Positions 2,646 to 26,321 of a DNA stretch of 64,000 nt are shown one piece after another (the first letter of the stretch is position 1; every line of letters starts with the position of its first letter). The position numbers and the translations under genes were made by a program. The notes below the pieces were generated by a model that saw nothing but the letters and a program-made list of their open reading frames with translations, was not told the DNA's origin and searched no databases. The stretch covers positions 17,099-81,098 of the forward strand of contig JAGTQM010000004.1 of NCBI GenBank assembly GCA_018396755.1. Direction: 5' to 3'. Source of the stretch: Candidatus Bathyarchaeota archaeon. Lineage in GTDB: Archaea; Thermoproteota; CALKCG01; B24.

Positions 2646-3827
2646 ATGGTTAGACGCTTAGGTTTAACGGGGAACGAAGCAATAGCGTATGCCGTTAAAC
2701 AATGCGATGTAGGCCTCGTATCTGCCTATCCGATAACGCCGCAAACGATAATAGTTGAGAGGATAAGCGATTACGTTGCCAATGGGGAAATAGATACAGA
2801 GTTCGTATGTGTGGAATCTGAACATTCAGCACTTTCAGCATGTATCGGTGCTAGTTTAACCGGTTTAAGAGTGTTCACTGCTACAGCTAGCCAAGGCTTA
2901 GCCTTAATGCATGAAGTTCTCTACGCGACTTCTGGATTAAGATGTCCGATAGTCATGGCCGTGGCCAACAGAGCTCTATCTGCACCGTTAAACATACACG
3001 GCGACCACTCGGATATGATGGGCTCTAGAGACTGTGGTTGGATTCAGATATTTGCAGAGAATGTTCAAGAAGCCTACGATTGGACCATTCAATCGTTTAA
3101 GATAGCTGAACATCCTGATGTCCAACTTCCTGTAGCTGTGAATATAGATGGATTCACTTTAACCCACTGCTTAGAAGACATAGAGGTTTTAGAGAAGGAG
3201 GACGTTGAAAAGTTTCTACCCCCTAGAAAACCGATATATCGTATAGACCCTGAGAAGCCTATGACCTTTGGAGCATGGGCTATGCCTGAGTATTACTACA
3301 AGTTTAAACTTCAACAGCAGGAGGCTATGGAAAATAGCATTAAGGTGTTTAAGCAAGTAGCTGATGAATACGGTAAACTTACTGGTAGAAATTATGGAGT
3401 AATTCAAAGCTACGGCTTAGAAGGATCAAAGGTAGCAATTATGGCTCTTGGAAGCACATGTGGAACGTTAAGACACGTTGCCAAGATACTTAGGGAGACT
3501 AAGGGGCTTAAAGTAGGGGTCATAAAACTCTGGCTTTACAGACCAATACCTGAAGACGACTTTATATCAACCGTTGAAAACGTAGAAACTCTAATAGTTT
3601 TAGATAGAGCATTAAGCCCTGGAGCTGTATTCGGACCCCTTGGAAGCGACGTAGCTTCAATGATCGTTAAGCGTAATTTAGACTTTAGGCTTCTAAACTA
3701 CACCTATGGTCTGGGTGGAGATGAAGTTTCCATGGATCTCGCTGACAAGCTTCTTAGATTGGCTGTGAAAGTAGCGGAGGGCGTTAAACCTACTAGTTTA
3801 ACTGGATATTTGAGGGAGGTTGTGTGA
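2646..3827 (+). CDS. porA: Pyruvate:ferredoxin oxidoreductase, alpha subunit
   Basis: 393 aa. Typical POR alpha N-terminus (GNEAIAYA...YPITPQT). Operon position between delta and beta. Confidence 0.9.
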   Translation: MVRRLGLTGNEAIAYAVKQCDVGLVSAYPITPQTIIVERISDYVANGEIDTEFVCVESEHSALSACIGASLTGLRVFTATASQGLALMHEVLYATSGLRCPIVMAVANRALSAPLNIHGDHSDMMGSRDCGWIQIFAENVQEAYDWTIQSFKIAEHPDVQLPVAVNIDGFTLTHCLEDIEVLEKEDVEKFLPPRKPIYRIDPEKPMTFGAWAMPEYYYKFKLQQQEAMENSIKVFKQVADEYGKLTGRNYGVIQSYGLEGSKVAIMALGSTCGTLRHVAKILRETKGLKVGVIKLWLYRPIPEDDFISTVENVETLIVLDRALSPGAVFGPLGSDVASMIVKRNLDFRLLNYTYGLGGDEVSMDLADKLLRLAVKVAEGVKPTSLTGYLREVV

Positions 3828-4752
3828 AATGGTTACGATAAGAGAAGTCCCATTGGGAGAGTATTGGGGGCCTGGACATAGTGCATGTGCGGGATGTGGT
3901 CCATCGATAACCATTAGGTTGATACTTAAGGCCTTGAGAAGACCAACAGTAGTAGTTACGCCGACCGGATGTATGGAGATCGTTTCAAGCTCCTACCCGC
4001 AGACCGCTTGGGGTATACCATGGATTCATGTGCTTTTTGAAAACGCCGCTGCTGTAGCTTCGGGAATAGAAGCCGCGTATAAGTACATGGCTAAAAAGGG
4101 TCTCCTTGAGGAGAAAGTTGATGTAGTTGTGATAGCTGGTGATGGAGGTACCTTCGACATAGGTATACAGGCGCTTTCAGGCGCTTTAGAGAGGTGGCAT
4201 AAATTCACATACATATGTTACGATAATGAAGCCTACATGAACACTGGGATTCAGAGGTCTAGTGCCACGCCGAAGGGTGCGGCGACAACTACGAGTCCAG
4301 CTGGAGAGGTTATACCCGGTAAGCTAGAGTATAAGAAAAACCTGATAGAGATAGCTGTTGCCCATCACATACCATATGCCGCTACCGGTACGATAGCCTA
4401 CTGGAGCGACTTGATGGAGAAGGTTCGTAAATCCTTGGAGGCTGACGGACCTGCTGTACTACACTTCCTAGCTCCATGTCCGTTGGGTTGGAGATTTGAC
4501 CCATCTCAAACCGTTAAATTATCTAGACTTGCCGTTCAGACTAGGTACTTCCCAATCTACGAGGTTGAAAATGAAGTTTACAAATTGAACGTTAAAGTCG
4601 CTAAGCCTCTACCTGTCGAGGAGTTTCTAAAACCTCAGGGAAGATTCAGACACCTATTCACGCCGAAGTTTAAACATGTCATAGAAGATATTCAAAAAAA
4701 TGTAGATGGAAACTGGAAGAATCTTCTGGAGAAGTGCACTGTGGAAAAATAA
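3820..4752 (+). CDS. porB: Pyruvate:ferredoxin oxidoreductase, beta subunit (TPP-binding)
   Basis: GDGG TPP-binding motif and a CxxC...C cluster near the N-terminus. Overlaps porA by 8 nt. Confidence 0.9.
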   Translation: MCEMVTIREVPLGEYWGPGHSACAGCGPSITIRLILKALRRPTVVVTPTGCMEIVSSSYPQTAWGIPWIHVLFENAAAVASGIEAAYKYMAKKGLLEEKVDVVVIAGDGGTFDIGIQALSGALERWHKFTYICYDNEAYMNTGIQRSSATPKGAATTTSPAGEVIPGKLEYKKNLIEIAVAHHIPYAATGTIAYWSDLMEKVRKSLEADGPAVLHFLAPCPLGWRFDPSQTVKLSRLAVQTRYFPIYEVENEVYKLNVKVAKPLPVEEFLKPQGRFRHLFTPKFKHVIEDIQKNVDGNWKNLLEKCTVEK

Positions 4753-4761: not shown

Positions 4762-6435
4762 TTAATCTGAAGTCTCCTCTTCTTTTTCTCCTGGAGGCTT
4801 TGGCGGTTTTTCTTCTTTAATCTTGCCAGCTGCTATGACATCGTCTATTCTAAGTATGCTTGTTGCTGCTTCAACTGCGGATTTTATGATCTGCTCTTTA
4901 ACGGCTAAAGGCTCTAAAACCTCAAGCTTATGCATGTCTGCAGTTTTTCCGTTTAAAACATCTACACCATACCATATATTGCCTTTTTCATGAATTGTTC
5001 TAAGCTCTACGATGGCGTCGATAGGCTCTAAGCCTGCGTTTTCAGCTAAGACCGACGGTATGACCTCTAAAGCTTCAGCGAACTTGAGGACTGCAAGCTG
5101 CTCTTTACCCGATAAGCCTTCAGACCACCTTCTGATTCTTAAACTCAACTCGAGTTCCGGAGCACCACCACCAGCTACTATGGCAGGGCTTTGTACGGCA
5201 TCTTTAACAACGCAGAGAGCGTCGTGAATACTCCTCTCAGCTTCTTCGACGACCTTATCGGCTCCACCCCTTATTAGGATTGTGACGCTTCTAGGATTCT
5301 TACAACCTTCTATGAAAACCCATTTGTCTTCTCCCACTTTACGCTCTTCAACTAATTTAGCGTAGCCGAGGTCTTCAGGCTTCAAATCCTCAATATCTGT
5401 GACTATTCTAGCCCCTGTAGCTCTTGACATCTTCCTCATGTCTGATTCTTTAACCCTTCTAACGGCTAGTATCCCTCTCTTAGCTAGGAAGTGCTGAGCC
5501 ATATCGTCTATACCCTTCTGACATACTACAACATTAGCACCCGTATCCGCTATTTTATCAACCATATTCTTAAGCATCTTAGTCTCCTGTTCGAGGAAGG
5601 CTCTTATCTGGTCTGGCCTCTCTATCTGGATTTTCGCATCTATCTCAGTCTTCTCTATTTCAAGTGGGCAGTTTAACAGAGCGATTTTAGCCTCCTTAAC
5701 GGTTTTAGGCATACCTGGGTGGACAACTTCCTTATCTAACACTATACCTTGAATAAGCCTTGTAGCTGTTATATCTTCCCCGGCTTTCTTCTCAACCTTT
5801 ATATCGTCTAAGTCGACTCTATAGCCTTCCTCATTCCTCTCAGCCACTTGTAGAATTGCATTCACCACAAGGTCAGCTAGAAACTCCTTGTTTTCAGCTA
5901 TAGCTTTTGTACCCAAAGAGGTCATAGCTACTTTCTTCAAAACTTCCCTATCCTCAGAACAAACCTTAATAGCGATTTCTCTTAAAACTTCAAGGGCTCT
6001 GTTAGCAGCAGCTTCATAGCCTTCAGTTATAACGCTTGGATGAATGTTTAAATCCAGTAAATCTTGAGCTTTTAATAGGAGTTCGCCTGTTAGAACTACT
6101 ACTGAAGTCGTTCCATCACCAACTTCGTTGTCCGTGGCTTTAGCTATTTCAACCATCATTTTAGCCACGGGGTGTTGTACATCCATCTCTTTAAGAATAG
6201 TGGCTCCGTCATTGGTTATCGTAACATCTCCTAGGCTATCTACAATCATCTTATCCATGCCTTTAGGACCCAGGGAAGTTTTAATCATTTCTGCAACTGT
6301 TCTGGCAGCCATTATATTAGTTGATAGAGCTTCCCTACCCCTCGTCCTAGAAGTCCCCTCTTTAAGGATTAATACTGGTTGACCGCTTTCAGTAACAACC
6401 GGTATTGCTTCCATAGATGTCATAAGTTCTATCAC
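4762..6435 (-). CDS. ths: Thermosome subunit (group II chaperonin)
   Basis: [34 protein letters not shown] and a charged GEKEEE tail. GTG at 6435. An in-frame ATG at 6423 is preceded by an AGGTGA Shine-Dalgarno and is probably the true start. Confidence 0.92.
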
Positions 6436-6462
6436 CTAAGACTTCAGAGAAGAAAAAAGAGA

Positions 6463-6471
6463 AATATAAAG
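6463..6471 (-). promoter_or_regulatory. TATA box (TTTATATTT on the minus strand) for the thermosome gene
   Basis: Lies about 40 nt upstream of the ATG at 6423. A short 5' UTR with an AGGTGA Shine-Dalgarno follows. Confidence 0.35.
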
Positions 6472-6670
6472 ATTTATCCAAAAAGACCCATATTCTTCAA
6501 TAAAACTTCGGGAACTCCTCCCTTTTTTACTTTTTTCTCAGCCCTAATATGGTTGACATTTTAATTCCCAGATGTAATAATTGGGTATCGAATTATACAT
6601 CCATCTGTCAGTTGATGTTTAACAATAGAAGCTTGGTTACGTAAATAATTCTACGGAGAGATAAACTCTA

Positions 6671-7270
6671 CTATCTATACTCTTCCCTATCTTTTCTCAG
6701 TTTAGACTCTGTTTTCATAGGAACTGTTTTAGATTTTGAAAGTCTAAATTTATATCTATCTCTTTCAACTTCTATTCTCAGAGGTACGTTTCTAATAGTT
6801 GTTGAAAGTTTTTTAACTGTTTCAAAGTCTATTGGCGTTCTTTTACCCATGTAGGAAATGACGACTTTAACTTCATTAGTCCCGTCTGGAAGCCAAATTC
6901 TATTAATAGTCCTTATACTTGCGGGTGCGAGAAGCTCCTCCAAAAACTCCCTAAAGCTACTTCTATAGCTTAAGACTCTAACCTTTTTACTGAAGATTTC
7001 ACCAAGTTCTCTAATAGCTCTACCGCCTTTAGATATAAGCTTAGCAACATCCTTCTGATCCACCAAGATGGCTAAAACATCGTCGACCATGTAGGCCTTG
7101 TAAAACGTAACATCTTGGAGCAGTTGACGATGTTGAGCTTCAAGCTTCAGAAGAGCTTTAGCAACTTCTACATCCAACTCTGAAATGACACCCATTTTAA
7201 GCTTCTCTTCACAACTTGAACATAGTGTCCCAGTTTTTAAGTCGAAGAGGCATACTGGTGTCTTGACCAC
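6671..7270 (-). CDS. KH-domain RNA-binding protein with an N-terminal Cys4 zinc ribbon (NusA-like)
   Basis: N-terminal CLFDLKTGTLCSSCEEK zinc ribbon. GxxG KH motif SKGGRAIRELGE. Stop is TAG. Confidence 0.45.
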   Translation of the reverse strand: MVKTPVCLFDLKTGTLCSSCEEKLKMGVISELDVEVAKALLKLEAQHRQLLQDVTFYKAYMVDDVLAILVDQKDVAKLISKGGRAIRELGEIFSKKVRVLSYRSSFREFLEELLAPASIRTINRIWLPDGTNEVKVVISYMGKRTPIDFETVKKLSTTIRNVPLRIEVERDRYKFRLSKSKTVPMKTESKLRKDREEYR

Positions 7271-8004
7271 ATCTATCTACCTTCTATAATCTCTTATCTT
7301 ACTTATGAGAATATTTTTACTCGATAAATATGTTTCGCTCAAATCAACGAATTGATAGAGCTTAGCCGGTCGTTCCATCATCAGAACTCAGCTCTATATT
7401 AAAAACATCACAGCCCCAAACATATATATTAGAAACTGGTTAAAATTAATTTTACAGCATACTTTCTCTCAAGCTTGAAAATGGTTCAGAGTCTGCTCGC
7501 TGTATTCATCCACAGAAGTGTCGTTAGACAGTGTCGCTCATCATCACCATAATTTCCAATGTCATCACATACTTTTAACTTTTATTGTTCTCTACGTTTA
7601 ACCACTTCCTTCCAAAAAGTTTGTTACGTAATTAAAAACTCACCATCTTCAGAGTACCTTAAATATATTGTCAGATAGGAGGGGTCGAGAAAGATTCTTA
7701 AAAGCCTCATCCTCCAGACCGACCTTGGAAACGAGTTTTGCTGCTAGTTTTCTAACCCTCTCAACCAGTTTAAGAGTTCTTCGGCATCCAATCCTCTTTG
7801 TAAAGAAGCTTTATTCTCCTTGAGGTCTACGATTACGTAGTTATGAGGTTTAATCCCAAGTTTTTCCCTCAAAGTCTTGGAGGGAGCACTATCTACCCCT
7901 TAAGTCCAACTTTCAATCTAAGCTTAACCATAAGTATCACAAAGTATTACTATTAGGTTTAACAACCTCACTCTATTCTATTCATTAAATTAGATACGTA
8001 CAAG

Positions 8005-9417
8005 TTGAAATACCTAATCGCAGTATTTGAGAAGGCTTTTAACCTATTAAAAACTATTCTTTATAGGGGTTTAATGGATTCTAGAGAGAAGATAACTCTT
8101 CTTGGAGGGGGAAGCCCCTTCATCCCATCCATGATTTACGTGATGCTTGAGAATAAAGAGGTTCTCGAGGACAGTGAAGTATGTCTTATGGATATAGACT
8201 CTACACGTCTTCCGTTGCTGACAAAACTAGCTGAGGAATTTTCTAGAAGAGCGAATGTTAAAATGACGTTTACTTGGACTACAGATCCTAGGGAGGCTCT
8301 TGATGGAGCTACGTTTGTTATGCCTGGTTATAGAATAGGCGGTGCGAAGCATATGATGTTTGATTTCGAAATACCGATGAAGTATGGAATATGTGGCGAT
8401 GAGACTGCTGGTCCCGGAGGCACGTTTATGGCTCAATGTACTATTCCGACTACTCTTGAATACTGTAGGATGATAGAGGATTTATGTCCAGATGCTTGGG
8501 TTATAAGCTACGTTAATCCTACGAATTTCGTAGCAGATGCCGTTCGAAGAGTAACGAAGGTGAAGTTTATCGCCATTTGCGACTGCTTCGCCGGCTTCGC
8601 TATGAGAACTCTCCCCGTGTGGTTGAACATGCCTCCGTTCGAGAGGAGATACTGCGTTAATGAAGATATAAGACCGCGTGCAATAGGCGTAAATCATAAC
8701 ACTTGGCTTGTAGACCTTCTAGTTAATGGGGAAGATGGCTATCCCTTACTCAGAAGTATACTTAGAAAATACAAGGAGAGTAGAGAGAAGGGCGTTCCAG
8801 TGTCTTTCCGAGGACCAGACGATTTTACAATGCGTCTCTTTGAAACATACGGCTATGTAAACATCTGTGCATATCACTGTCACATGTACTGGGAGCACAA
8901 TAAAGCTATGGAGATTAGGAAGAGAATACCTGAAGCGTCTCTATTGGGATAGTCTAAGTCGGCTTGGGACTTCGTCAACGAAATGCTTGCTGGCGCCGAC
9001 TACGATTCTAACCGCCCAGAATATTGCTTCCACTTACACCACGCTAGACATGCTATAGGGATAATGGTCAGCATTATCGCCAACGAGGGACGCGAATGGG
9101 GAGGCATAAACTTTCCAAATAATGGCGCCATAGGAAATCTACCTAGGAACGCCATAGTGGAAGGTCTATGTATAGTTGATAGAAGAGGAATAACGCCAAT
9201 AGTCGTAGGAGATCTTCCAAAACCATTACTAGGACTTACACTGCATACTTTAAACTGGCAAGAGCTTACAGTAGATGCAGTTCTTACAGGAGATAAAGCC
9301 CTCTTATATCAAGCTCTTCTGGCATGTCCCTATGTTCACGATATGGAAGCCGCTAGAAAGATAATGAACGATCTTCTAATAGCTCACGCAGAGTTCATGC
9401 CACAGTTTAAGAAATAG
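8005..9417 (+). pseudogene. GH4-family NAD+/Mn2+-dependent glycosidase (alpha-glucosidase/6-phospho-glucosidase-like) interrupted by an in-frame TAG at 8950-8952. The likely true ATG start is at 8074.
   Basis: ORFs 8005..8952 and 8983..9417 are in the same frame. The N-terminal part has the GGGS Rossmann motif and the AICDC region. The C-terminal part has INFPNNGAIGNLP...VGDLP, typical of GH4 C-termini. Alignment to the intact paralog at 47982..49286 is collinear across the stop with no indel. Confidence 0.75.
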
Positions 9418-9578
9418 CCGTAAGCAATTTGAAAAGAGGTCTTCAGAAGATACTATTTGAACGTTATATCTCCAACTATTTTTAAACTCTTTCTATATAT
9501 AGTCGTCTACAAGTTAGAATTGTTAATTTAACCGTTAAATATAAATAATTCCCTAAGATAACTTAATTTACGGTTGAA

Positions 9579-11549
9579 ATGTCAAGGGAAGTAGTTAAGG
9601 AGAAGTTTCCATGGTTGCTTGTGATACTTGTACCGCTCATTTTAGGCTTCATAGGTCCCATATGGCAGTTGCTCATAGGCAGCTTCCCCTACTGGATTGC
9701 TAATGCATTAGGAGAATCTGTCTGCCACATAGGGTTAACTACAGCGCCATTTCTGACTCTTCTTGTAACAGCTCCGCTCTATAGGATTAAGTCTTTAAGA
9801 GACAGACTAGGCATTAAAACTCTAGCATACTTATACATAAGCTCTTTAACGACATCATATTTTATCCACTATCCATGGGCATTATGTACGCACTACATGT
9901 ATGCGCTCAGAATCACATTGCGTGAACTTGCAGATATGGTTATACCGACCTTTATGGCTCCTCCATATGAGGTTGCTATTCTACTATCAGAAGGTGGTCC
10001 AATAGATTGGAGTGCTTGGGCAACACCGATCACTTGGTACTGGCTTCTCAACGTAACTGTAAGCTTTTTCATGTTATCGTTGGCTACTCTATTTAGAAGG
10101 CTCTGGATAGATATTGAGAAGGTTCCGTTTCCACACGCTTTAGTCGCATATGAACTAGCTGAAAATAGTACCGCGGAGAAGGGTTGGAGTAGATTCTTCC
10201 TAATAGGAGTAGTCTTAGGTCTGGCTTTCCAAATTCCAGTAACCCTTACAGGAATATTTCCATGGTTCCCAGACATCTACGGCGTCAACTATAGATCATG
10301 TCCTATGTTGACCCGATGGTTTGGCGGCGATGAACCCATGGGCACTATACCAGGTATGATGAGTATGACGTATAGTCCTACAGCAGTAGCAATAGCTTAT
10401 ATGGTTCCTCTACATGTACAGTTTAGCACGTGGTTCTTTGCCTTAATGTACATAATAGCTGTTCAAATATCCTACTACATGGGCTATTATACTGGAATAA
10501 CGGGTATAGGTACGTGTGGTAGGTACTGGTGCAGTCCATCTCCATCTACAGATCCGCCTCTTAAATTTATGGCTATAGCCGTAGGTGCTCTCATAGCATT
10601 AGGTATTATGCATTTAATACTTAACAGGCGATATCTTACTGAAACGTTTAAAGCAGTGTCCATAGGCTCTGATGAATTTAAAGAAGAGGCTATGAGTTAC
10701 AGAGCATGTTACATGATGCTGGCTATTGCCCTCATAGCTTCCACGGCGTTCTGGATGTGGTCTACTATGTCGTTTTTAGATGCATTGGTTATGGCTCTAA
10801 CGGCTTTTTGCATATGGTATCCAATGAGCCGTCTTTTTGGATTAGCTGGAGCATACTGGAGAAGCGTCGATAAAGGTTTCGTCTTCTTTAGACTTCTCTA
10901 TCCGACGTGTCATGATCCACCGACAACTCGAGAATTCCTAGTGTTCAGAATGTCCACTTTCCTATCAGATACTCCATCATATCCGTGGGGTGGTGCAGCC
11001 ATTTCATCTTTCACCTCTTATAAATTCGCCAGCCTTGCTGGTTTAAGTGCAAGAGACACATTTAAAACTCTAGCCATAGCTTTTCTAATAGCACCTCTAG
11101 TGTCGAACGTTGCACTCGTATGGATTCTACATACAGTAGGCGGTAGACGTATAGGAATATGGTCGAGTTGGTATCTAGGAGGGACTTGGGCCTTAACTGG
11201 CGTATCTACGGGATGGATTACACTACCGGCTCGTGATCCTTGGGTTGAATATAGTATAATAGGTGCTATAGTAGCGATTGTTCTCAGCTTGCTTCACGCT
11301 AGATTCGTATGGTTTCCGCTTGAACCAATCGGCTACATACTGGGTACTACATGTGCTTCAGCCTTATTTGGGCTATGGTCTGCGTTTCTAGTTGCATGGA
11401 TACTTAAAATGATAACTCTACGAATTGGAGGAGCTAAACTCTACGAAGGCTGTGGTGTTCCAATAGCCTCAGGTGCCGTAACAGGATGCATGATAGGAAT
11501 GATACTAGGCGGAATAGTATGGATAACGAGATTCTTCATACCATTCTAA
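9579..11549 (+). CDS. Large polytopic membrane protein, uncharacterised family (paralog A)
   Basis: 656 aa and very hydrophobic, with many predicted TM helices. Conserved motifs shared with paralogs at 52762..54765 and 61237..63248: IDIEKVPFPHA, FPWFPD, YYTGITG, CGRYWCSPSPSTDPPLKF, and C-terminal RIGGAKLYEG. Confidence 0.8.
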   Translation: MSREVVKEKFPWLLVILVPLILGFIGPIWQLLIGSFPYWIANALGESVCHIGLTTAPFLTLLVTAPLYRIKSLRDRLGIKTLAYLYISSLTTSYFIHYPWALCTHYMYALRITLRELADMVIPTFMAPPYEVAILLSEGGPIDWSAWATPITWYWLLNVTVSFFMLSLATLFRRLWIDIEKVPFPHALVAYELAENSTAEKGWSRFFLIGVVLGLAFQIPVTLTGIFPWFPDIYGVNYRSCPMLTRWFGGDEPMGTIPGMMSMTYSPTAVAIAYMVPLHVQFSTWFFALMYIIAVQISYYMGYYTGITGIGTCGRYWCSPSPSTDPPLKFMAIAVGALIALGIMHLILNRRYLTETFKAVSIGSDEFKEEAMSYRACYMMLAIALIASTAFWMWSTMSFLDALVMALTAFCIWYPMSRLFGLAGAYWRSVDKGFVFFRLLYPTCHDPPTTREFLVFRMSTFLSDTPSYPWGGAAISSFTSYKFASLAGLSARDTFKTLAIAFLIAPLVSNVALVWILHTVGGRRIGIWSSWYLGGTWALTGVSTGWITLPARDPWVEYSIIGAIVAIVLSLLHARFVWFPLEPIGYILGTTCASALFGLWSAFLVAWILKMITLRIGGAKLYEGCGVPIASGAVTGCMIGMILGGIVWITRFFIPF

Positions 11550-11656
11550 ATAAACCCCCACCATTTTTCCTCCTGTAACCTCTACGTAAGATGATTTTTT
11601 AATGTAAATTCACGGTAAAACCTTTAAAGGTCTTACATTAAATTTTCAAATCAAAA

Positions 11657-14600
11657 TTGTCCACTAGAAGTTTTAACTCTAAAAATGATAGAGCCGTAAA
11701 GGTTTGGGAAGAGCATGTTGTTAAGCCCACCTACAAGATATTAAGGGAGGACAATCTTCCATATTTTATGAGTAAACACTACCCTTATACTAGGCTAGAC
11801 TTCTTCGATACAAAACCCACCCCGGTCAATTATAGGGAAGTCGTTATGGAGAATGAATACCTCAAAATATCCGTTAGACCGGAGCTTGGCGCCCGCCTAT
11901 TCTCAGCATTTGATAAAATATCTGAAAATCAAGTATTCCACTACGTTGACACAATTAGACCCTTCTTAATAGCTCAAAGGGGTGCATGGATTGCAGGAGG
12001 ATTAGAGTTTAACCTATGCCAACATCCAAGCCATACAGCAGACAATTTTTCACCAGTCGATTACGTATACGTCGTACATGAAGATGGAAGCGCTTCAATA
12101 TTGATAGGCAGCCTCATACTGTACACCAACGTAAGATACTTGGTCGAAATGACTCTAAGACCTAAAACGGCTAGGATAGATATTCGCGTAAAAACTTTCA
12201 ACACGGACCTTATTCCTCAGAGGTACTACTTCTGGTCTAACGCCGCCGTCTCTGCAAGCGAAAAGCTTCGCTTCTTCTACCCGGGCTCTCTTTCAAACAT
12301 AGGTAAATTCCCGGCGAATGAGGAAGGCGTTGACTTAAGCTGGTATGTGAACTACGATAGACCATTAAGCATATTCATCATAGATTCTGAAGAAGACTTT
12401 TTCGCAGCGTATGACTATAAGTCTTCCAGAGGACTGGTTCACTATGCAGATCACAATATTATCCTCGGGAAGAAGATATTCAGCTGGGGGCTATCTGAAG
12501 ATGGTTTATTCTGGAAAAACCTCCTATCGGATAAAGATATACCTTACGTAGAGATTCAAAGTGGGCGTTTTCTAACGCAGGGGATTGTTGAGCTTATAGA
12601 TCCACTGAGCTTCGAATCATGGGAAGAATACTGGTATCCAGTTCGAGATATGAATGGGATAACATATGCCAATGAAAAAGCAGCAATCTACGTGAATGAG
12701 GAAAATAAAGCTGAGCGTAGGCTTCAGATCAATGTATGCTCAACCATATCATGTGAAGCTAAACTCGTATTGTATGCAGACGGAGAGAAATTCTATGAAG
12801 AACTAGTAGAGCTTCTCCCTGAGAAGACGCTTAAGAGGAATATTAAAGCGCCGCCCGGAAAATTGCTGCTTAAAATAATTGACTTAAACGGAAGGGAAGT
12901 GATTTCATGGGACTTTCGAAGTTACAAGATAAAACCGCATGAAGCCCCATCTTGGATCAGAGAAGTCCCGAATTGGAATTGGAATAATGCCGTTGAAGAG
13001 CTTTGGCTGAAGGGGGTTGAATCTGCGAAGAGGGAGACGTTTCTTAAAGCCGAAAGATACTTCACGTCTTCTTTGGAGAAGGATGGTGTCTTCTCTAAAA
13101 GCTTATGTTCTCTAGGTCTTTTACGTTATAGATCGGGTCTATACGATGAAGCCGCATCCCTCTTTCAGAGGGCATTGACGAGAAATCCATACAATGAAGA
13201 GGCGCGTTATTACCTCGGTTTAACTATGCTTGTTTTAAATAATCTTGATGGAGCTGAGAGAGAACTCTGGAGAGTTTCCTCGAAGATAGGCTACAGATCA
13301 CTAGCTCTATACCTTCTAGGCATCATAAGGATGAGGTTAAAAGCATATGATGATGCCGAAAATCTACTGCGAAGGTCGATACAAGAATGCGGTTACAATT
13401 TGAAGGCTCTATGCGCTCTCTCTATGAGTCTTAGAAAACAGGGAAAGCGTGAGGAAGCGTGGAAGGTTTTAGAGGAAGCGTATCATATAATGCCTCTTGA
13501 CTACTTGGTACTTGCGGAAAGGTATCTTCTATCTTCTGATGAGGAGTTTAAAAGGGTGGTTTTCACAAGTTTCCAGAAGGTTTTGGAGGTGTCAAAAGGT
13601 TACATGTTTGCTGGCTTGTTTGAAGATTCACTGACGATATTGAAAGCAGCGCTGGACTATGGTATACGTAATCCGCTAATCTACTATTACATAGGATATT
13701 CTTATAAGAAGATTGGTAGGTTTAACGATGCTATAGACTACTACAAATACGGAAGTAGAGAAAACATCGATTATATTTTTCCGCACAGGTTAGAGGATTT
13801 GGAGGTTCTCAAAGATATCGTTAGTAGTCTTCCATCGGATCCAACACCGCATTATTTACTCGGCAACGTCTTATTCTATTTGGGACGATTTAAAGAAGGC
13901 CTCGAGAAGTGGGAGAGGGCTTACATGCTTGGATTGAGAAGTTCTGTACTTTCACGTAATATTGGATATGCTTACGCTGTCTTGACATTAGACTATAATA
14001 GGGCTATTAACATGTACTTGGAGGCTATAAGACTTGAACCTGAAAATCATAAACTCTATGTGGAGCTGGATGAGATTTACTCAAAGATCGGTTACTACAC
14101 TGAACGTGTTAAATTGCTAGAGAATACGCCTCAGGAAGCCAGGCATAGCGCACTGCTTGCTAGACTTGCCTCAGCATACGTTGACGCTGGAGAATACGAG
14201 AAGGCTCTAAATATTCTGTATAACACATTTTTCGAGCCTATGGAAGGTTACTATGGGTTTTGGGAAATTTACGTTGATGCACTTATGGCTAAAGGATTTA
14301 CACTTTTCAAGAACTGTATGTTTGAAGATGCGGCGAAATGCTTCATAGAAGCTATGAGCTATCCCAAAAACCTCGGTATAGGTGCACCGCATCTAAAATA
14401 TAGACAAGATTTAATGCAACTCTACTATGTCGGTTTAGTATATGAAAGACTCGGAGAATTTTCTACTGCGCAAAGAATATGGTCTAATGCTCTTCAACGA
14501 TTTTCTGGGGACCATGAGAATCGCATATTTAAAGCGTTGATTTTACGAAAACTGGGAAAAATCGAAGAATCTGAGCTTATGCTTAGAAAAGTAGTTGACG

Positions 14601-14845
14601 AAGCCAAGTCAGAATTGGATAGGATGTCTGAGGGATTAGGCGATGAAAATAGCTACTTAGTATATGTACATGGAGCTGACGTTTCATTTGCAAACTTACA
14701 TTATGTGTTGGGGCTTGGATACATTGCTCGAGGAATGGTGGAAGCAGGGGTCGAAGAGATAGATAAATCGTTGAAATTGACCAAGGTTATTAGACACGCG
14801 CGATGGATTAAAGATGGTATGATTCCAATATCGTCGCTTCTCTAG
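11657..14845 (+). CDS. Large DUF5107-like protein with C-terminal TPR repeats
   Basis: 1062 aa. The N-terminal region (VKVWEEHVVKPTY...) resembles the DUF5107 family. The C-terminal half is rich in TPR-like Y/A/L repeats. TTG start at 11657, with no nearby ATG. Confidence 0.5.
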   Translation: MSTRSFNSKNDRAVKVWEEHVVKPTYKILREDNLPYFMSKHYPYTRLDFFDTKPTPVNYREVVMENEYLKISVRPELGARLFSAFDKISENQVFHYVDTIRPFLIAQRGAWIAGGLEFNLCQHPSHTADNFSPVDYVYVVHEDGSASILIGSLILYTNVRYLVEMTLRPKTARIDIRVKTFNTDLIPQRYYFWSNAAVSASEKLRFFYPGSLSNIGKFPANEEGVDLSWYVNYDRPLSIFIIDSEEDFFAAYDYKSSRGLVHYADHNIILGKKIFSWGLSEDGLFWKNLLSDKDIPYVEIQSGRFLTQGIVELIDPLSFESWEEYWYPVRDMNGITYANEKAAIYVNEENKAERRLQINVCSTISCEAKLVLYADGEKFYEELVELLPEKTLKRNIKAPPGKLLLKIIDLNGREVISWDFRSYKIKPHEAPSWIREVPNWNWNNAVEELWLKGVESAKRETFLKAERYFTSSLEKDGVFSKSLCSLGLLRYRSGLYDEAASLFQRALTRNPYNEEARYYLGLTMLVLNNLDGAERELWRVSSKIGYRSLALYLLGIIRMRLKAYDDAENLLRRSIQECGYNLKALCALSMSLRKQGKREEAWKVLEEAYHIMPLDYLVLAERYLLSSDEEFKRVVFTSFQKVLEVSKGYMFAGLFEDSLTILKAALDYGIRNPLIYYYIGYSYKKIGRFNDAIDYYKYGSRENIDYIFPHRLEDLEVLKDIVSSLPSDPTPHYLLGNVLFYLGRFKEGLEKWERAYMLGLRSSVLSRNIGYAYAVLTLDYNRAINMYLEAIRLEPENHKLYVELDEIYSKIGYYTERVKLLENTPQEARHSALLARLASAYVDAGEYEKALNILYNTFFEPMEGYYGFWEIYVDALMAKGFTLFKNCMFEDAAKCFIEAMSYPKNLGIGAPHLKYRQDLMQLYYVGLVYERLGEFSTAQRIWSNALQRFSGDHENRIFKALILRKLGKIEESELMLRKVVDEAKSELDRMSEGLGDENSYLVYVHGADVSFANLHYVLGLGYIARGMVEAGVEEIDKSLKLTKVIRHARWIKDGMIPISSLL

Positions 14846-15199: not shown

Positions 15200-16131
15200 C
15201 TCAAATAAATCCTTTCACCTTTATAACCAGATTTAAGTATTGCCTCACATATCTTAAGTGCTTCCACTCCATCATCAGCCGTTAGAAGTAGGCTCTCCTT
15301 ACCTAAAACAGCATTGATAAAGTGTTTAAGCTCCCTCATTAAAGGCTCTTCCCACTTAACAGTCGGCTGAAGAACTTTTTCAGAATCTTCTATTAAAACT
15401 TCTTGAGATATGTAATCTAGCGAAACAGTAGCCTCGCTTCCAGTGATTATCAGAGACCTGATCCTGCGGGGTGTAAGCCAGTTGGCCTCTATAAACCCTG
15501 TAACTTCACTTTCAAAGTGGAGAATCGCTTCAGCGTAGTCTTCAAATCTATGCCTGAGACTGCCAACCTTGGCGTAAACGCTCTCAACATCGCCTATGAG
15601 GAAACGCATGACATCTAAATCGTGTATAGCAGAATCTTTAACAACACCCACGTCTCCTATGCGTTCAGGCCATCTAGAAACTCTTCTAGCAGTTATAAGT
15701 ATAATTCGGCCGAGTGCACCGTTATCTATCAATGTCTTAATTCTCCCCACGGCTGGGTTAAAGCGTTCTATATGGCCTGGCATGAGTCTAAGTCCTAAAC
15801 TGTAAGCTAAATCTCGAAGCTTCTCAGCCTCCTCTAAAGTGCTACATAAAGGCTTCTCCGTTAAACTGTGTACACCATGGTTTAAAACCTCAGATGTTAT
15901 CTCAAAATGCGTGGTCGTTGGTGTGCATATACTTACAGCATCTGGCTTTTCAACAAGAAGCATCTCCTTAAAATCACTGTATGCTCTACATCCATATCTC
16001 TTAGCTACGCTTTTAGATCTTTCACGGTCTATATCGCATACTGCAACAAGTTCAACGTCCTCTATCTCGCTATAGACTCTAGCATGGTTCCTACCCCAGA
16101 AACCTACACCTATGACCGCTACCTTAGTCAA
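15196..16131 (-). CDS. Gfo/Idh/MocA-family NAD(P)-dependent oxidoreductase (WbpB-like UDP-sugar 3-dehydrogenase candidate)
   Basis: VAVIGVGFWGRNHARVY Rossmann motif. Probable TTG start at 16131, giving MTKVAVIGVGFWG. It overlaps the stop of the upstream dehydrogenase in a TTGACTAA arrangement. The ORF-track GTG at 16185 would add an atypical 18 aa extension. Confidence 0.75.
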   Translation of the reverse strand: MTKVAVIGVGFWGRNHARVYSEIEDVELVAVCDIDRERSKSVAKRYGCRAYSDFKEMLLVEKPDAVSICTPTTTHFEITSEVLNHGVHSLTEKPLCSTLEEAEKLRDLAYSLGLRLMPGHIERFNPAVGRIKTLIDNGALGRIILITARRVSRWPERIGDVGVVKDSAIHDLDVMRFLIGDVESVYAKVGSLRHRFEDYAEAILHFESEVTGFIEANWLTPRRIRSLIITGSEATVSLDYISQEVLIEDSEKVLQPTVKWEEPLMRELKHFINAVLGKESLLLTADDGVEALKICEAILKSGYKGERIYLR

Positions 16132-17500
16132 CAGAATCAGCTCCCACGCCGACGTATATAAGGTTGGCTTTTTCAACTTCTTCACGGTTAAATATTCTGC
16201 CGAAGTCTACTATGGCTATAGTCTTACTCTCAGGGCTTCTAAAGTCGCTTAAGCTTATGTTTTTAAATACATCGTGTGGTGTAGCTATGATTACACAATC
16301 AACATCTCTGAGAGTCCTCTTAAGGCTTAAAGACGTTTTAAAGCCCATACCTCTAATTTCATCGCGTGTAAAATATGGATCATACACCACCACTTCAGCT
16401 CCCCTCTTCAGTAGCTCATTTGCTAATTTAAGACTATAGGAGTTTCTAGTATTTTTAACATTTGGTTTAAAACTTAACCCAAGTACAAGTATCCTAGAGC
16501 GTCTAAGAGGTTTCCCAAGCCTTCTTAAAGCCTTAATCACAAGTGCATAACCGTGTTTAAGGAGGATATCATTAACTTTTAAAGTTACTTTGAGCGTACG
16601 TAAGCTGAAATTAACGTTTTCAGCTGAATTCTGCAAGAGTTGAGCATCCTTAGGCAGATGACCACCCACACCTATGCTAGGTTTAAGAAGATGGCAGAAT
16701 GGCTGAGTTGTGGCAGCCTTCAATACTTCAACATAATCTACACCTATTTTTTCACATAAGACCGCTAGCTCATGGCTAATAACCAGTGCGGCAAACCGAT
16801 AGAAGTTTTCAAAAAGTTTGACAGTTTCAGCTGTTTTAATATCCCTAACTCTAACAATCCCCCCTTCAACAACTGTTTTCAAAACAGCCTCACTAATTGC
16901 AAGGCTTTTAGGTCCAACTGCTCCAACAACTCTAGGATAACTTACAAGATCCCTCAGCAATGATCCCTCCGCTCCTCTGAGGGGGCTATAGGAAAAACCG
17001 AAGTCTTGCTCAGCCTTTAAATTAGACAATGCCTCAATTCTCTCTTTAACCACTTCTTCAGTTACACCTGGACCAGTTGTACTGCTTTGAATAATAAGAC
17101 TACCCCTCGTCATACACGTACCTAAATCTTCTGCAATTTTACGGAGGGGGAAGTAGTCTGGAATACCGAGTTGACTTACTGAAGCCGATATGACAATCAT
17201 GATTATCTCAGAATCGTTAACAGCGGATTTGACATCTGTAGTTGGGTGAAATTTTTCCATCCTAAGCACTTTCTGAAGAAGTGCTCGAAGTCCCGGTTCA
17301 GAGTTTGGAATTACACCACGCTTAAGCTTGTCAACAAGTTCTACGTTTGCGTCTACTCCATAAACTTCAACCCCTTTATCCGCGTAAAGGCAAGCTAACG
17401 GTAGACCCATAACTCCACAGCCTATTACGCTCAGTTTAAGATTTCCTTTAGTAAGCATCTCAGGAATTTCCTCAGGATTTAGATCCATTATATTAGTCAT
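16124..17500 (-). CDS. NDP-sugar dehydrogenase (UDP-glucose/UDP-GlcNAc/UDP-ManNAc 6-dehydrogenase family, WbpA/WecC-like)
   Basis: LSVIGCGVMGLPLACLYADKGVEVYGVD N-terminal NAD-binding fold. 458 aa, typical of the UDP-Glc/GDP-Man dehydrogenase family. Confidence 0.8.
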   Translation of the reverse strand: MTNIMDLNPEEIPEMLTKGNLKLSVIGCGVMGLPLACLYADKGVEVYGVDANVELVDKLKRGVIPNSEPGLRALLQKVLRMEKFHPTTDVKSAVNDSEIIMIVISASVSQLGIPDYFPLRKIAEDLGTCMTRGSLIIQSSTTGPGVTEEVVKERIEALSNLKAEQDFGFSYSPLRGAEGSLLRDLVSYPRVVGAVGPKSLAISEAVLKTVVEGGIVRVRDIKTAETVKLFENFYRFAALVISHELAVLCEKIGVDYVEVLKAATTQPFCHLLKPSIGVGGHLPKDAQLLQNSAENVNFSLRTLKVTLKVNDILLKHGYALVIKALRRLGKPLRRSRILVLGLSFKPNVKNTRNSYSLKLANELLKRGAEVVVYDPYFTRDEIRGMGFKTSLSLKRTLRDVDCVIIATPHDVFKNISLSDFRSPESKTIAIVDFGRIFNREEVEKANLIYVGVGADSVD

Positions 17501-17591
17501 AAAGGACGACCTCTTCGCGTATGTATTAGTACTCTAAAATTCTAACTATGAGAATTTAAATTATACCCTCTAAGGATTGTTGTGGTTCTAA

Positions 17592-17837
17592 TGGATTGCC
17601 GTCGATTTAGAGCATAGTATCGTCACTATAACGTCTGAAAAGGGGATAGAGTTTTCAATACTTCGTTATAACCGTCGAAATAAACTTCATGAAGCAGAGA
17701 AACGCATTGACGGAAAACTGAATAATCCAAGGTTGAAGAAAATAACATTCCATCCATTAAAGCACTGGAAGACATCGATAAGATATCGTAGAACCAGAGG
17801 CATCCTACACGTCAAGGAATTGCTCGATCATAAGTAG
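17592..17837 (+). pseudogene. Remnant of a tyrosine recombinase (integrase) C-terminal domain, with no start codon and truncated before the catalytic Tyr
   Basis: The open frame translates to ...ITFHPLKHWKTSIRYRRTRGILHVKELLDHK*. This matches the recombinase box II consensus HxLRHxxAT...G......V..LLGH position for position. The frame stops right after LLDHK, so the downstream Tyr is missing. Confidence 0.35.
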
Positions 17838-17992
17838 ATTGAAAATACAATGATTTATATCATAGTAGAAAAAGTACTGTTTCAAATCAATGATTTTCAC
17901 TGTAAAGTTGATCAAAGCAAGCTTTAACTACGTGACAACCTTTAACGAGGTAATGCTTTTTAGAAAGTGGAAGCGAAGGTTTCACTGAAAAT

Positions 17993-19066
17993 ATGAGAGT
18001 TTTACTTGACATTTTAACGCCAAAGCAATGTAGATTTTTCTCAGTTTTGGGAAGAGAGCTTGAGAAACGGAGTTTCGAAGTCTATAAAACGGCTAGAGTA
18101 TTTAGGGAAGTTGTTGGACTTTTAGAAGCCTTAGGTGAAGAGGCCTACTTAGTAGGTAGATATGGCGGGGCAACGCTTGAAGGAAAGCTTGAAGCCAGTT
18201 TGAAGCGGATGATAGAACTTAAGAAGGTTTTCCAGAAAATTAGACCTAATCTAGTTGTATCCTTCTCCTCTCCAGAAGCATCTAGAGTAGCCTTCGGGCT
18301 AAATATACCTCATGTAGCTGTAAATGATAGTCCACATTCAAACGCTGTGGCAAGACTATCAATTCCACTGTCTAAAATGCTGTTCACACCTTGGATTATA
18401 CCTAAGAATGCTTGGACAGTATACGGTATAGAACCTTCTAGGATTTTTAAATATAAGGCTCTAGATCCAGCTGCGTGGCTTAAGAATTTTAAACCGGATC
18501 TAAATATTGTTAAATCATTGGGGCTATCTAAGGAGAAGCCAATAGTAGTATTCAGGCTTGAAGAAAGCCAAGCGTCGTACATACTTGGCATGGGCGGTCT
18601 CGTCGAAGAAATAGCTTTAAAAGTCATTCAAAGATTTGACATTCAACCAGTTATAATGCCTAGATATGAGGAGCAATTGCAGAAAATCTTAGAAAAATTT
18701 AACGTAAAGGCTCTAGTATTGGAAAAAACAATAGATGCCGCAAACCTATTGTGCTCAGCTACGGTGTTTGTAGGAGGTGGGGGGACTATGAACTCTGAAG
18801 CTGCTTTGTTAGGTGTTCCAGTAATTTCATGCTACCCTGGTGAAGAAACATACGTTGAGAAATTCCTTATAGGTAAAGGTTTCCTATGTAAAGTCTTCAA
18901 CTCAGAAGAAGCTTTAAAACTTATAGAGCGTTTTCTAAAGTTTCGCGAAAAGGTTAAGTTTGAGAGAAAAGCTAGAAAGCTTTTAGCTTCTATGGTAAAT
19001 CCCGCAGAGTTTATAGCGGAGAAAATTGCTCAAACTTTTTCCCATGAATCTTCTTCTCAAGTTTAG
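17993..19066 (+). CDS. DUF354-family protein (archaeal glycosyltransferase / UDP-GlcNAc 2-epimerase-like fold)
   Basis: MRVLLDILTPKQCRFFSVLGRELEKRSFEV... resembles DUF354 N-termini. A GT-B-like glycine-rich segment (VFVGGGGTMNSEAALLGVP) is present. Confidence 0.55.
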   Translation: MRVLLDILTPKQCRFFSVLGRELEKRSFEVYKTARVFREVVGLLEALGEEAYLVGRYGGATLEGKLEASLKRMIELKKVFQKIRPNLVVSFSSPEASRVAFGLNIPHVAVNDSPHSNAVARLSIPLSKMLFTPWIIPKNAWTVYGIEPSRIFKYKALDPAAWLKNFKPDLNIVKSLGLSKEKPIVVFRLEESQASYILGMGGLVEEIALKVIQRFDIQPVIMPRYEEQLQKILEKFNVKALVLEKTIDAANLLCSATVFVGGGGTMNSEAALLGVPVISCYPGEETYVEKFLIGKGFLCKVFNSEEALKLIERFLKFREKVKFERKARKLLASMVNPAEFIAEKIAQTFSHESSSQV

Positions 19067-19673
19067 CCTTTAAGCCGCTTGGCTTCCCATAAACTTCCGT
19101 CAACCCCTTTCTAATGGATTCTAATATGTCCTCCATGCCAGTTGAAGATGTTTCAACGACAGTATACGCATATCCTATTGTTCTGGGTATGTGGGAATCG
19201 CTTCCAGCAGTCATTGGTATGTTGAATTTAAGAGACACTATTATATTAACTCTGGATGATATTGGGAAGAGAATGGTACCTGAATTTAAGGCTTCTATAG
19301 CATCCAACCCTGATTGTCTGATTTGGAGTGTAAATGAAGGGATTAGCGTTCTAGGGAAAGGATGTGCTAAAACTGTAACTGCCCCAAGCCTCTTAGCCTC
19401 CTCTAGAACTATCTGTATATGTTTTAAGCCGGGTTTAAGCCTCCACTGATCTGCCCCTAAAACCAATACATGACCTATGGGTGTATTTACCTCTAAACCA
19501 GGTATGATAAGAACACCCCTCATAAAACCCCTAACCTTTGAAGGTGCCTCATGTTCAGTTAAGGCAAGACCATTTAAGCCTTTAACCTTAGCCTCAATTA
19601 GAGCTTCATCAAGTCTGATCAAAGAATCTCCAGAAGCATTAGTGTGAACGTGAAGATCCAGTTTTAATTTCAT
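19011..19673 (-). CDS. PHP-domain metal-dependent phosphoesterase
   Basis: LDLHVHTNASGD...LTEHE PHP motifs. 220 aa. Overlaps the 3' end of metG by 35 nt and converges on the DUF354 gene. Confidence 0.6.
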   Translation of the reverse strand: MKLKLDLHVHTNASGDSLIRLDEALIEAKVKGLNGLALTEHEAPSKVRGFMRGVLIIPGLEVNTPIGHVLVLGADQWRLKPGLKHIQIVLEEAKRLGAVTVLAHPFPRTLIPSFTLQIRQSGLDAIEALNSGTILFPISSRVNIIVSLKFNIPMTAGSDSHIPRTIGYAYTVVETSSTGMEDILESIRKGLTEVYGKPSGLKAKLEKKIHGKKFEQFSPL

Positions 19674-21348
19674 GCTTAATCCTCAATTTTTCAAGTTTAT
19701 TTATTTCAGATACGATATCTTCATCTCGAATTTTTCTAAATAAAGGTCTGGGTTTAGAAACTCTATGTCCGGGCTTAAGTATCTCTTTAAGAGAATTCCA
19801 CCTTACTGAGTTTAAGTCCTCAAGTATATTAAGCATGCGTCTAATCTCGGTTGCTGTAAACGGTAGGTATGGTATTAACAATATTGAAATAGCGTAGACT
19901 ATTTGAGAAGCTACGTAGAGTGTTGATGACGCGGCATCGGCGTCGTTCCAAGGCGTCTTAACGTTCAAATAGCTATTTCCAAGAGATGAAAGCTTCATAA
20001 TCTCCTTAAGACCTTTCTTAAATTCAAACCGCTCGATTTCCATCATTACTTTTTCGGCAGTTCTATTTATTTCACTGAGTATTTTCTTATCATATTCATT
20101 CAATTCGTCTGGTTCAGGAACGATTCCATTTGAAAGTTTGTGAAGAAGTGTTAAAACTCTATTTACAAAATTCGCAAGATTTGCGATAAGCTCATTGTTT
20201 ACCTTTGCTTGGAAATCTTTCCATTTAAAATCCGTATCTCTATGTTCTGGAGCTATTACTACAGCGTAGTACCGTATCATATCTGGATGAAATTTCTCAA
20301 GCATTTCATGAAGCCATATTACCCATCCTCTGCTGGTAGAAAGCTTCTCCCCTTCGAGATTAACGAACTCGCTTACTACAACGTTTTCCGGTAGAACATA
20401 ATCTCCATAGGCGATTAGAAGAGCTGGAAAAAGAATCGTATGGAAGAATAAATTGTCCTTACCTATAAAGCAGTAGAGTTCCACATCGCTTTTTTTCCAG
20501 TATTCAACCCACATTTCAGGCTTATTATGCTCAACAGCCCAGTGTTTTGTAGCAGATATGTAACCTAAGAGGTTTTCAGCCCAGTTGTATATAACTTGAC
20601 CTTTAGCTTTCGGAAAAGGGGCGGGCGGACCCCAATCGTAGTCTCTAGTTATGTCTTTATCTTTTAAACCCTCCTTCAGAAGCCAAGATAAGGTTTTGTT
20701 TAATGTAGCTTTTCTCCAATTGGAGCCTTTAAGCTTTACATACTGTAAAATTTTACCTGTGAGCATCGATAGTTTAAGAAAATAGTGAATGCTTTCTCTT
20801 AAAACTGGTTTAGTACCACAGATTGCACATTTGGGATCTATAAGCTCCCAAGCATCGTACCATCTTCCACATTTTTCACAGACATCACCATACTGGTCTG
20901 GGGCTCCACAATATGAACATACCCCCTTGACGAATCTATCTGGGAGAAAAGTATTACATTTTGGACAGAAAAGTTGTTTAATGTTTTTCTCATATATGAA
21001 GCCTCTATTGTAAAGGGTTTTATAGAATTCCTCGACTGTTTCAAAATGTATGGGTAGAGACGTTCTAGAGTATACGTCGAAGCTTATTCCGAGTTTTTCA
21101 AAGACAGTTTTCTGAATGACGTAGTTTCTATCGCACAACTCTTTCGGTTGAATCTTAAGCCGCATAGCCTCTAATATGACGGAAGTTGCATTTTCATCCG
21201 TACCGCATACGTATATTGCATCATCGCCTTTAAGCCTTCTATGTCTAACGTATATATCCGCAGGTAGGTATGCTCCTGCTAAATGTCCGAAATGTCTAGG
21301 AGCGTAAACATACGGTAAAGCCGCTGTAACCAGTACTCTTTTAGCCAT
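19639..21348 (-). CDS. metG: Methionyl-tRNA synthetase
   Basis: HFGH (HIGH) motif and KLSTSRG (KMSKS-type) motif. CPKC...CSYC zinc knuckles. ATG start. Confidence 0.9.
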   Translation of the reverse strand: MAKRVLVTAALPYVYAPRHFGHLAGAYLPADIYVRHRRLKGDDAIYVCGTDENATSVILEAMRLKIQPKELCDRNYVIQKTVFEKLGISFDVYSRTSLPIHFETVEEFYKTLYNRGFIYEKNIKQLFCPKCNTFLPDRFVKGVCSYCGAPDQYGDVCEKCGRWYDAWELIDPKCAICGTKPVLRESIHYFLKLSMLTGKILQYVKLKGSNWRKATLNKTLSWLLKEGLKDKDITRDYDWGPPAPFPKAKGQVIYNWAENLLGYISATKHWAVEHNKPEMWVEYWKKSDVELYCFIGKDNLFFHTILFPALLIAYGDYVLPENVVVSEFVNLEGEKLSTSRGWVIWLHEMLEKFHPDMIRYYAVVIAPEHRDTDFKWKDFQAKVNNELIANLANFVNRVLTLLHKLSNGIVPEPDELNEYDKKILSEINRTAEKVMMEIERFEFKKGLKEIMKLSSLGNSYLNVKTPWNDADAASSTLYVASQIVYAISILLIPYLPFTATEIRRMLNILEDLNSVRWNSLKEILKPGHRVSKPRPLFRKIRDEDIVSEINKLEKLRIKHEIKTGSSRSH

Positions 21349-21554
21349 GTTTGTTAATCTAACAGATGGCCGCCTCCTTAAAAGAATTACTTTTAAACGT
21401 CCTGAGTTTAAGGAGATGAAATTATTTATCCAAAAATCGACTATTTATTCAAGTTTTAAACTTCTAACGTTAGCGGAAATCCATACTTAATCTATGTGAA
21501 AACCTTTTACATAAAGGTTAAAGTAGTGGTTAATGCTTATTTTTCTTGGGCATT

Positions 21555-21968
21555 ATGACTTCAGTAAGCTACGAGGACATGCTTAAAAGAGCTTTATCAT
21601 CTTTACCTAGGAAACCTCTTCAATCTGAGAGGTTGAAAATTCCATCGGCCGACGTCATCGTAGTGGGAAACCGTACTCTAGTGCGAAACTTTAGAGAAAT
21701 TGCATCGATCATAAATAGGGACCCAGAGCATTTATTAAAATTCCTCTGCAAGGAGGCAGGTTCAGCTGGCACTTTGAAAGACGATATAGCTGAAATACAT
21801 GGAAGGTTCGATAGATCTACATTAAACAAGCTTATAGAGAGATACGTACAGAATTTTGTACTATGTAAGGTTTGCATGAGACCTGATACGCATCTCAAGA
21901 AATACGGACGCTTTCTCTACATAGAGTGCGACGCGTGTGGGGCTTCGTCACCAATAATATCGAGGTGA
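21555..21968 (+). CDS. eif2b: Translation initiation factor aIF-2 beta subunit
   Basis: C-terminal zinc ribbon CKVCMRPDTHL...CDACGA. The N-terminus resembles aIF2-beta. The ORF opens at a TTG at 21546, but the ATG at 21555 is the likely start. Confidence 0.8.
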   Translation: MTSVSYEDMLKRALSSLPRKPLQSERLKIPSADVIVVGNRTLVRNFREIASIINRDPEHLLKFLCKEAGSAGTLKDDIAEIHGRFDRSTLNKLIERYVQNFVLCKVCMRPDTHLKKYGRFLYIECDACGASSPIISR

Positions 21969-22273
21969 AATATTTGTGTAGTGTCTACGTTAAAGTTCAT
22001 AGATTTCAAGGTTATGTGCTTGTAGCTGTATGTGATGAAGAGCTTCTTGGGAAAATTCTAAACGAGAGGGATATATGCTTCGATGTTAGCGAAAAATTCT
22101 TTAAAGGGCTTAAAATGAGTGTGGAAGAAGCTATAGCTCTTATTCGAAATGCCGATACTGCTAATTTAATAGGTGTTACGATTGTGAATAGAGCTGTGGA
22201 AGAGAGGCTTGTACATCCAGAGGCTGTTGCGAATATAGCTGGCATACCTCATGCTCAAATAGTTAAGCTTTAA
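21965..22273 (+). CDS. DUF424-family protein (conserved aIF2-beta neighbour)
   Basis: VYVKVHRFQGYVLVAVCDEELLGK pattern typical of DUF424. A probable GTG start overlaps the aIF2-beta stop as GTGA. Confidence 0.5.
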   Translation: MKYLCSVYVKVHRFQGYVLVAVCDEELLGKILNERDICFDVSEKFFKGLKMSVEEAIALIRNADTANLIGVTIVNRAVEERLVHPEAVANIAGIPHAQIVKL

Positions 22274-22287
22274 TCTAGGTGCTTCTT

Positions 22288-23127: not shown

Positions 23128-23139
23128 AAAGTTATGAAA

Positions 23140-23982: not shown

Positions 23983-24132
23983 ATGTATCACTAAAACGTA
24001 GATAGTGCAACTCTTATATTTAGTCTTCCTCGCGAATACTTGATTCAACAGTTATAAGGGAGTCCGGAAACCTCACCTAAACGCATCCATATATTGTAAA
24101 AATATAGTTTTCTCATCTATAGTGTGGATCAG

Positions 24133-26286: not shown

Positions 26287-26321
26287 TAGCCTCCACATAC
26301 GTGGAGAAACGCTTCTGGTTG

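Follow-up and report, generated by a model that had tools for sequence, protein, structure and literature searches.

Prokaryotic unitary nonsense pseudogenes carry one disabling substitution in an otherwise conserved gene, are shared with sister strains by inheritance and are accompanied by further decay in related lineages. In this work, we analyzed a 64-kb stretch of DNA from a Bathyarchaeia archaeon of hot-spring type, referred to as the window, in which a glycoside hydrolase family 4 (GH4) gene is cut by an in-frame TAG codon. The same features recur at this locus, and nothing material sets it apart from such pseudogenes; it represents an early phase in which one stop codon and one extra missense change have accrued. 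We consider it very probable that positions 8074 to 9417 represent an ordinary, recently inactivated unitary GH4 pseudogene in which Trp293 became an amber codon. A recent nonsense pseudogene is an already known kind of event.

Interrupted archaeal genes may also be expressed by recoding. According to a review, the demonstrated cases are readthrough with Sec or Pyl insertion and −1 frameshifting, the latter in fucA1 and in one more recent case (PMC8211752). The fucA1 gene of Saccharolobus solfataricus, which encodes an alpha-L-fucosidase by programmed −1 frameshifting, resembles our locus in being an interrupted glycosidase gene of a TACK archaeon. In the primary literature, its slippery site is reported to lie inside the overlap of the two ORFs. 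These ORFs are in different frames, and their overlap spans 40 bases (PMC8211752). In contrast, the GH4 gene keeps its frame, its interruption is a stop codon without a recoding signal, and its host is a Bathyarchaeia archaeon rather than a cultured crenarchaeote. The analogy to fucA1 drawn in a preliminary description of the window does not apply to the GH4 locus, as no frame change is involved.

Pyl decoding of UAG in methylamine methyltransferase genes is similar insofar as an in-frame TAG is found in a gene that is otherwise intact. In Pyl genes, however, the TAG is conserved across orthologues and located in the active site, whereas the GH4 orthologues have TGG. Moreover, the protein families are not related, and ORFs in the window commonly end in TAG. 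Some Bathyarchaeota have pyl genes, and PylRS is encoded among them (PMC9630628).

The closest proteins of known structure are GH4 6-phospho-glycosidases and alpha-glucosidases (1S6Y, 5C3M, 1U8X GlvA, 1UP6 BglT). The read-through product shares their two-domain architecture, and its GGGS, Cys-Asp and Asn-His motifs align with theirs. It differs in belonging to a Bathyarchaeia/Chloroflexota/haloarchaeal GH4 clade that is paired with a DUF6785 membrane protein; the printed alignments to the solved structures leave out the middle of the protein with W293.

Reading frame and family features of the GH4 gene

The GH4 gene occupies 8074..9417 on the forward strand and comprises 447 codons, as delimited by Pfam matches, orthologue length and PDB matches. 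Our analysis confirmed the in-frame TAG at 8950..8952 that had been described as splitting it; this is codon 293. The stop lies between the mechanical ORFs 8005–8952 and 8983–9417, all in one frame as stated earlier, but the true start is the ATG at 8074, at which all orthologues have their Met1; the TTG at 8005 merely opens the mechanical ORF. When 8074–9417 is translated, codon 293 is the single internal stop, and the natural terminator is the TAG at 9415–9417. The residual C-terminal ORF at 8983..9417 (forward strand, 144 amino acids from Met303) is no separate gene by comparison with the orthologues. In the NCBI annotation, the locus appears as two hypothetical proteins of 292 amino acids (KEJ27_02580) and 144 amino acids (KEJ27_02585), the latter being the 144-residue ORF of the window including Val403, by which the window corresponds to the KEJ27 MAG.

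Both GH4 Pfam domains match the read-through translation above gathering score. Glyco_hydro_4 (PF02056) covers residues 6–178 (E 3e-45, 154.5 bits), and Glyco_hydro_4C (PF11975) covers residues 204–419 (E 4.7e-35, 121.9 bits), a match that crosses the stop. PDB chains of GH4 enzymes match the read-through protein with E values from 2e-54 to 1e-13. Upstream of the stop, the G-x-G-S motif for NAD+ binding is kept, with G11, G12, G13 and S14 invariant and aligned to GGGS of 1S6Y, 5C3M and 1U8X. C169 and D170 align to the Cys-Asp of GlvA (1U8X) and N207 and H208 to its Asn-His pair, and all four residues are invariant among the orthologues. In the literature on GlvA and BglT, Cys171 and His202 of GlvA are Mn2+ ligands and the adjacent Asp172 is catalytic. 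With GGGS, C169, D170, N207 and H208 all preserved in line with the GlvA motifs, the gene was, to judge from its sequence, a bona fide GH4 member until the stop arose.

Truncation at codon 293 removes the last 155 residues (293–447), including most of the GH4 C-terminal domain. The lost part holds about one third of the invariant positions of the family, among them W298, Y310, H323, R325, the REWGG block (340–344), N346, N349 and N355. A complete two-domain reading frame is hence no longer present, and the locus is a pseudogene, not a functional GH4 member. The 292-residue product would presumably be inactive, and a full-length protein is presumably not made.

Ancestral codon, inheritance of the stop and later changes

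A protein search returned 242 homologues, with the best matches from Bathyarchaeia metagenomes and MAGs. The closest full-length orthologue, P0001, is exactly 447 codons long and is encoded on a 248-kb JGI contig (L001) with 93% protein identity, 84% identity in the flanking DNA and synteny downstream. Intact orthologues of equal length share 92–94% protein identity with the read-through product, and close orthologues share 84–88% of their nucleotides without an indel across 447 codons. Between the window and L001, 165 codons of the gene differ, 133 by synonymous and 32 by non-synonymous changes, and no indel is found. Equal length together with these proportions shows that strong purifying selection acted on the gene throughout most of its past, until recently.

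The preliminary description had based its collinear alignment, with same spacing and no indel, on the GH4 paralogue at 47982–49286 on the minus strand. This part did not hold, as the paralogue is just 32% identical to the 8074–9417 product, with 34 gap positions in the alignment, and is a weak comparator. Against orthologues the statement is correct (1344 nt versus 1344 nt, zero indels). These also bear out that one nonsense codon is the only disabling lesion, with neither an indel nor a second stop over 447 codons.

A comparison with relatives for a sense codon at the site had been suggested, and every close orthologue has TGG (Trp) there. L001 has TGG as codon 293; the sequence SLLGWSKSAWDFV is present in L006, L007, L008, L010 and L011 as well as in all full-length members of the 90% cluster. 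Among 114 orthologues, column 293 contains W in 97, R in 14, G in two and F in one, and never a stop. From TGG in all close orthologues it follows that the TAG is a single G-to-A transition. The locus thus carries an inherited disabling lesion (TGG to TAG) relative to intact orthologues, and very recent pseudogenization by a single nonsense codon, which had been proposed as one of three explanations, is supported by orthologues with TGG and by the lack of other disabling lesions.

The exact 292-residue product is found in two NCBI records, MBS7611087.1 (KEJ27_02580, on a 138,844-bp contig) and MBS7617825.1 from a second MAG, KEJ25 (GCA_018396495.1, scaffold JAGTQP010000022.1, 29,014 bp; L018 and L019). 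The KEJ25 scaffold matches window positions 6175–12952 with three mismatches and no gap (99.96% identity over 6.8 kb), and the TAG is common to both. Overall, seven substitutions separate the two in about 21 kb, and the contig end and scaffold gaps (runs of N) of KEJ25 differ from those of the window. As the same TAG occurs in two separately deposited, slightly diverged MAGs, the stop was inherited and is no random consensus error. Exact look-ups of the 144-residue ORF and of the DUF6785 product found no encoding contig, while the 292-residue product led to the sister MAG. Among the genome and metagenome contig collections scanned for contigs of the same species, only relatives with at most 94% protein identity were found, and a literature search on the accession numbers of the assemblies gave no match.

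We also considered additional split genes in KEJ25 (MetRS, DUF5107/TPR), which had hinted at many in-frame stops, as cases of recoding or poor base quality; the apparent splits are due to stretches of N in the scaffold and not to mutations. A further assembly (L020; GCA_018396855.1, JAGTQK010000002.1), compared with window 15774–27386, is 100% identical to window 15774–25432 and then carries an overlapping duplication of window 24825–26153, probably an assembly difference. The GH4 locus is beyond its reach.

Two of the seven strain substitutions fall in the GH4–DUF6785 module, and four of the other five are synonymous. One of them, at 9281, is downstream of the stop and makes codon 403 (9280..9282, forward strand) GTT (Val) in the window as opposed to GCT (Ala) in KEJ25. 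Since Ala is found here in 114 of 114 orthologues, this is a missense change specific to the window strain. The other, at 10116, is GAG (Glu) in the window and TAG in KEJ25, a derived nonsense change, E180*, in the DUF6785 gene. In a parsimony analysis with five outgroups, the terminal branch of the window GH4 gene carried 34 synonymous and about 18 non-synonymous changes, compared with 34 and eight for the sister L008. This non-synonymous excess is not significant (Fisher p = 0.11). The neighboring DUF6785 gene had 41 synonymous and ten non-synonymous changes on the window branch. At columns conserved to at least 95%, the window GH4 shows two deviations, equal to the family median. Beyond A403V and the stop, the gene thus gives no strong signal of decay. 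Taken together, these data are suggestive of relaxed constraint on the GH4–DUF6785 module since the stop arose, with the small numbers of seven SNP sites in the strain contrast and p = 0.11 in the branch comparison.

Sequencing error, stop-codon decoding and split-enzyme readings

A TAG that differs by a single base from the orthologues, and this in a MAG, could reflect a sequencing or assembly error with TGG in the real genome. Substitution errors in consensus sequence are rare, however, and the same base is found in two separately deposited MAGs with different contig boundaries, scaffold gaps and seven substitutions between them. No other gene of this kind, cut by an in-frame stop, occurs in the 64-kb window. 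Four same-frame pairs of stop-free stretches (at least 90 codons each, with a single stop between) were found there, and GH4 is the sole convincing case; of the other three, one runs antisense to a long ORF, a second overlaps a long ORF of the opposite strand and the third is antisense to the split DUF6785 paralogue. The base-call error considered in the preliminary description is hence very unlikely. Translation of the TAG, either as pyrrolysine or with a natural or near-cognate suppressor tRNA, would yield a full-length and perhaps conditional or regulated GH4 and has at best an equally slim chance. Here, the rest of the gene speaks against a pseudogene in that it is intact and of orthologue length, without an indel or second stop and with metal-ligand and catalytic positions kept. 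The allele has also lasted long enough to be common to two strains, the R, G or F at 293 in distant homologues makes activity of a read-through product conceivable, and Pyl machinery is known from some Bathyarchaeota (PMC9630628). Yet the close orthologues have TGG, and a stop at this site is seen in none of 114. Nor is TAG avoided as a terminator: of the 47 other long ORFs of the window it ends ten, and it also ends the GH4 gene itself, for which the window and L008 use TAG as opposed to TAA at that codon in L001, L006 and L007. Within the 64-kb window, we found no tRNAs, no match to Rfam families and neither pylT, pylS or pylBCD nor a suppressor tRNA with CUA anticodon; pyl-like genes were absent among the 25 window ORFs examined. 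The RNA fold of 131 nt that span the TAG (8940–9070, mostly downstream) was no better than that of shuffled sequences (z = +0.83). Moreover, orthologues that need no readthrough have the same sequence around the site, and the nucleotides downstream of the stop thus contain no acquired signal for readthrough or re-initiation and no acquired Shine-Dalgarno sequence. After the stop arose, the window strain lost the invariant Ala403 and the sister strain acquired a nonsense codon in the partner gene. In archaea, readthrough has been demonstrated only for Sec and Pyl insertion, according to the review (PMC8211752). Stop-codon readthrough, also put forward in the preliminary description, accordingly finds no support, and with both ORFs in the same frame, one stop between them and no indel against the orthologues, the locus does not have the layout of programmed −1 frameshifting either. 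Were the amber decoded after all, this would be the first readthrough gene in a TACK archaeon that is neither a methyltransferase gene nor one for Sec insertion.

Least probable of all, in our view, is a split enzyme in which the 292-residue N-terminal fragment and the 144-residue C-terminal fragment, re-initiated at Met303, would assemble into an active GH4. An in-frame ATG indeed follows ten codons past the stop. The ten skipped residues, however, include the conserved W293, W298 and F300, and by eye no sequence resembling a Shine-Dalgarno motif precedes 8983 within about 30 nt. This stretch is unchanged against intact orthologues; Met303 and the 24 nt upstream are identical in the window, in L001 and L008 and even in the frameshifted L014, so that nothing has evolved there for re-initiation. 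Broken copies aside, no split GH4 is found among the 120 homologues listed. We hence rejected the idea for its loss of W293, W298 and F300 and its lack of a new initiation signal. The GH4 locus gives no evidence for new recoding biology.

The GH4–DUF6785 module in related lineages

The GH4 locus lost Trp293 (TGG) to an amber codon by a single G-to-A change in an ancestor common to at least two sampled Bathyarchaeia strains, KEJ27, to which the window belongs, and KEJ25. Translation would since stop after 292 residues, and without the last 155 residues no active enzyme would be formed. Additional lesions in orthologues had been named earlier as the mark of a decaying pseudogene, and they are found at the genus level, in two sister lineages. 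In L014 (JGI Ga0209183_1000004), whose GH4 is at 3001–4341, 2 nt are deleted after nt 134 and 1 nt after nt 264, and the frame-shifted stretch contains stops. Its remnant ORF of 354 amino acids and a close variant occur on at least five contigs (JGI, ENA, Logan). L009 (MAG DRTY-6_201901_bins_74; 5961–6950) and L017 (JGI Ga0209394; 2961–3950) have six 1-nt deletions and two in-frame stops in common, and the 3′ end is truncated and rearranged in both. By these lesions, the GH4 orthologue is evidently broken independently in two related lineages, that of the L014 type and that of L009 and L017.

In every orthologous locus (L001–L008), the GH4 gene is directly followed by a DUF6785/DUF6784 gene, identified by Pfam as coding for a multi-pass membrane protein. 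This partner gene, at 9579..11549 on the forward strand, is intact in the window and carries E180* (GAG to TAG, equivalent to window 10114–10116) in KEJ25. DUF6785 may serve this GH4 clade as its transporter partner. The window contains two GH4 and three DUF6785 genes among genes for a sulfatase, esterases, an FGGY kinase and a DeoC aldolase. The second GH4 gene, at 47982–49286 on the minus strand, is intact and located near the sulfatase, the esterases, the second DUF6785 gene (52753–54765) and the DeoC aldolase gene. A frameshift splits a third DUF6785/DUF6784 gene (61237–63248, minus strand) into two ORFs of different frames, with the N half at 62199–63248 and the C half at 61237–62337. A −1 shift near 62283–62290 would join the halves, and no slippery heptamer is evident at this junction. 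This split gene is probably a second pseudogene, from the same family as the partner of GH4.

Further differences were seen around the module. A gene for a DUF5107 and TPR protein of 1067 amino acids follows at 11642–14845 on the forward strand; it occurs in L008, L009 and KEJ25 as in the window, whereas L001, L006 and L007, syntenic in other respects, lack it, and the loci differ here by the presence or absence of 3.3 kb. Upstream of GH4, the roughly 800 bp at 7277–8073 contain no convincing ORF and no Rfam match, and synteny begins at about 8025 with L001, L006 and L007 and at 7589 with L009. An A/T-rich, TATA-like stretch, ATTAAAAA, at 8046–8053 lies about 25 nt before the GH4 ATG and would fit a leaderless transcript.

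From the changes since the stop and the losses in relatives, we infer that selection on the GH4–DUF6785 module is relaxed. The module appears to be dispensable in this genus; it would be drifting in both strains and has been lost independently in neighboring lineages. KEJ27_02580 and KEJ27_02585, like their KEJ25 equivalents, should be annotated as one GH4 pseudogene, and metabolic reconstructions of these MAGs should leave the locus out when glycosidase capacity is tallied. More generally, it provides a small example of how a Bathyarchaeia genus is losing a carbohydrate-use module, GH4 with its DUF6785 membrane protein.
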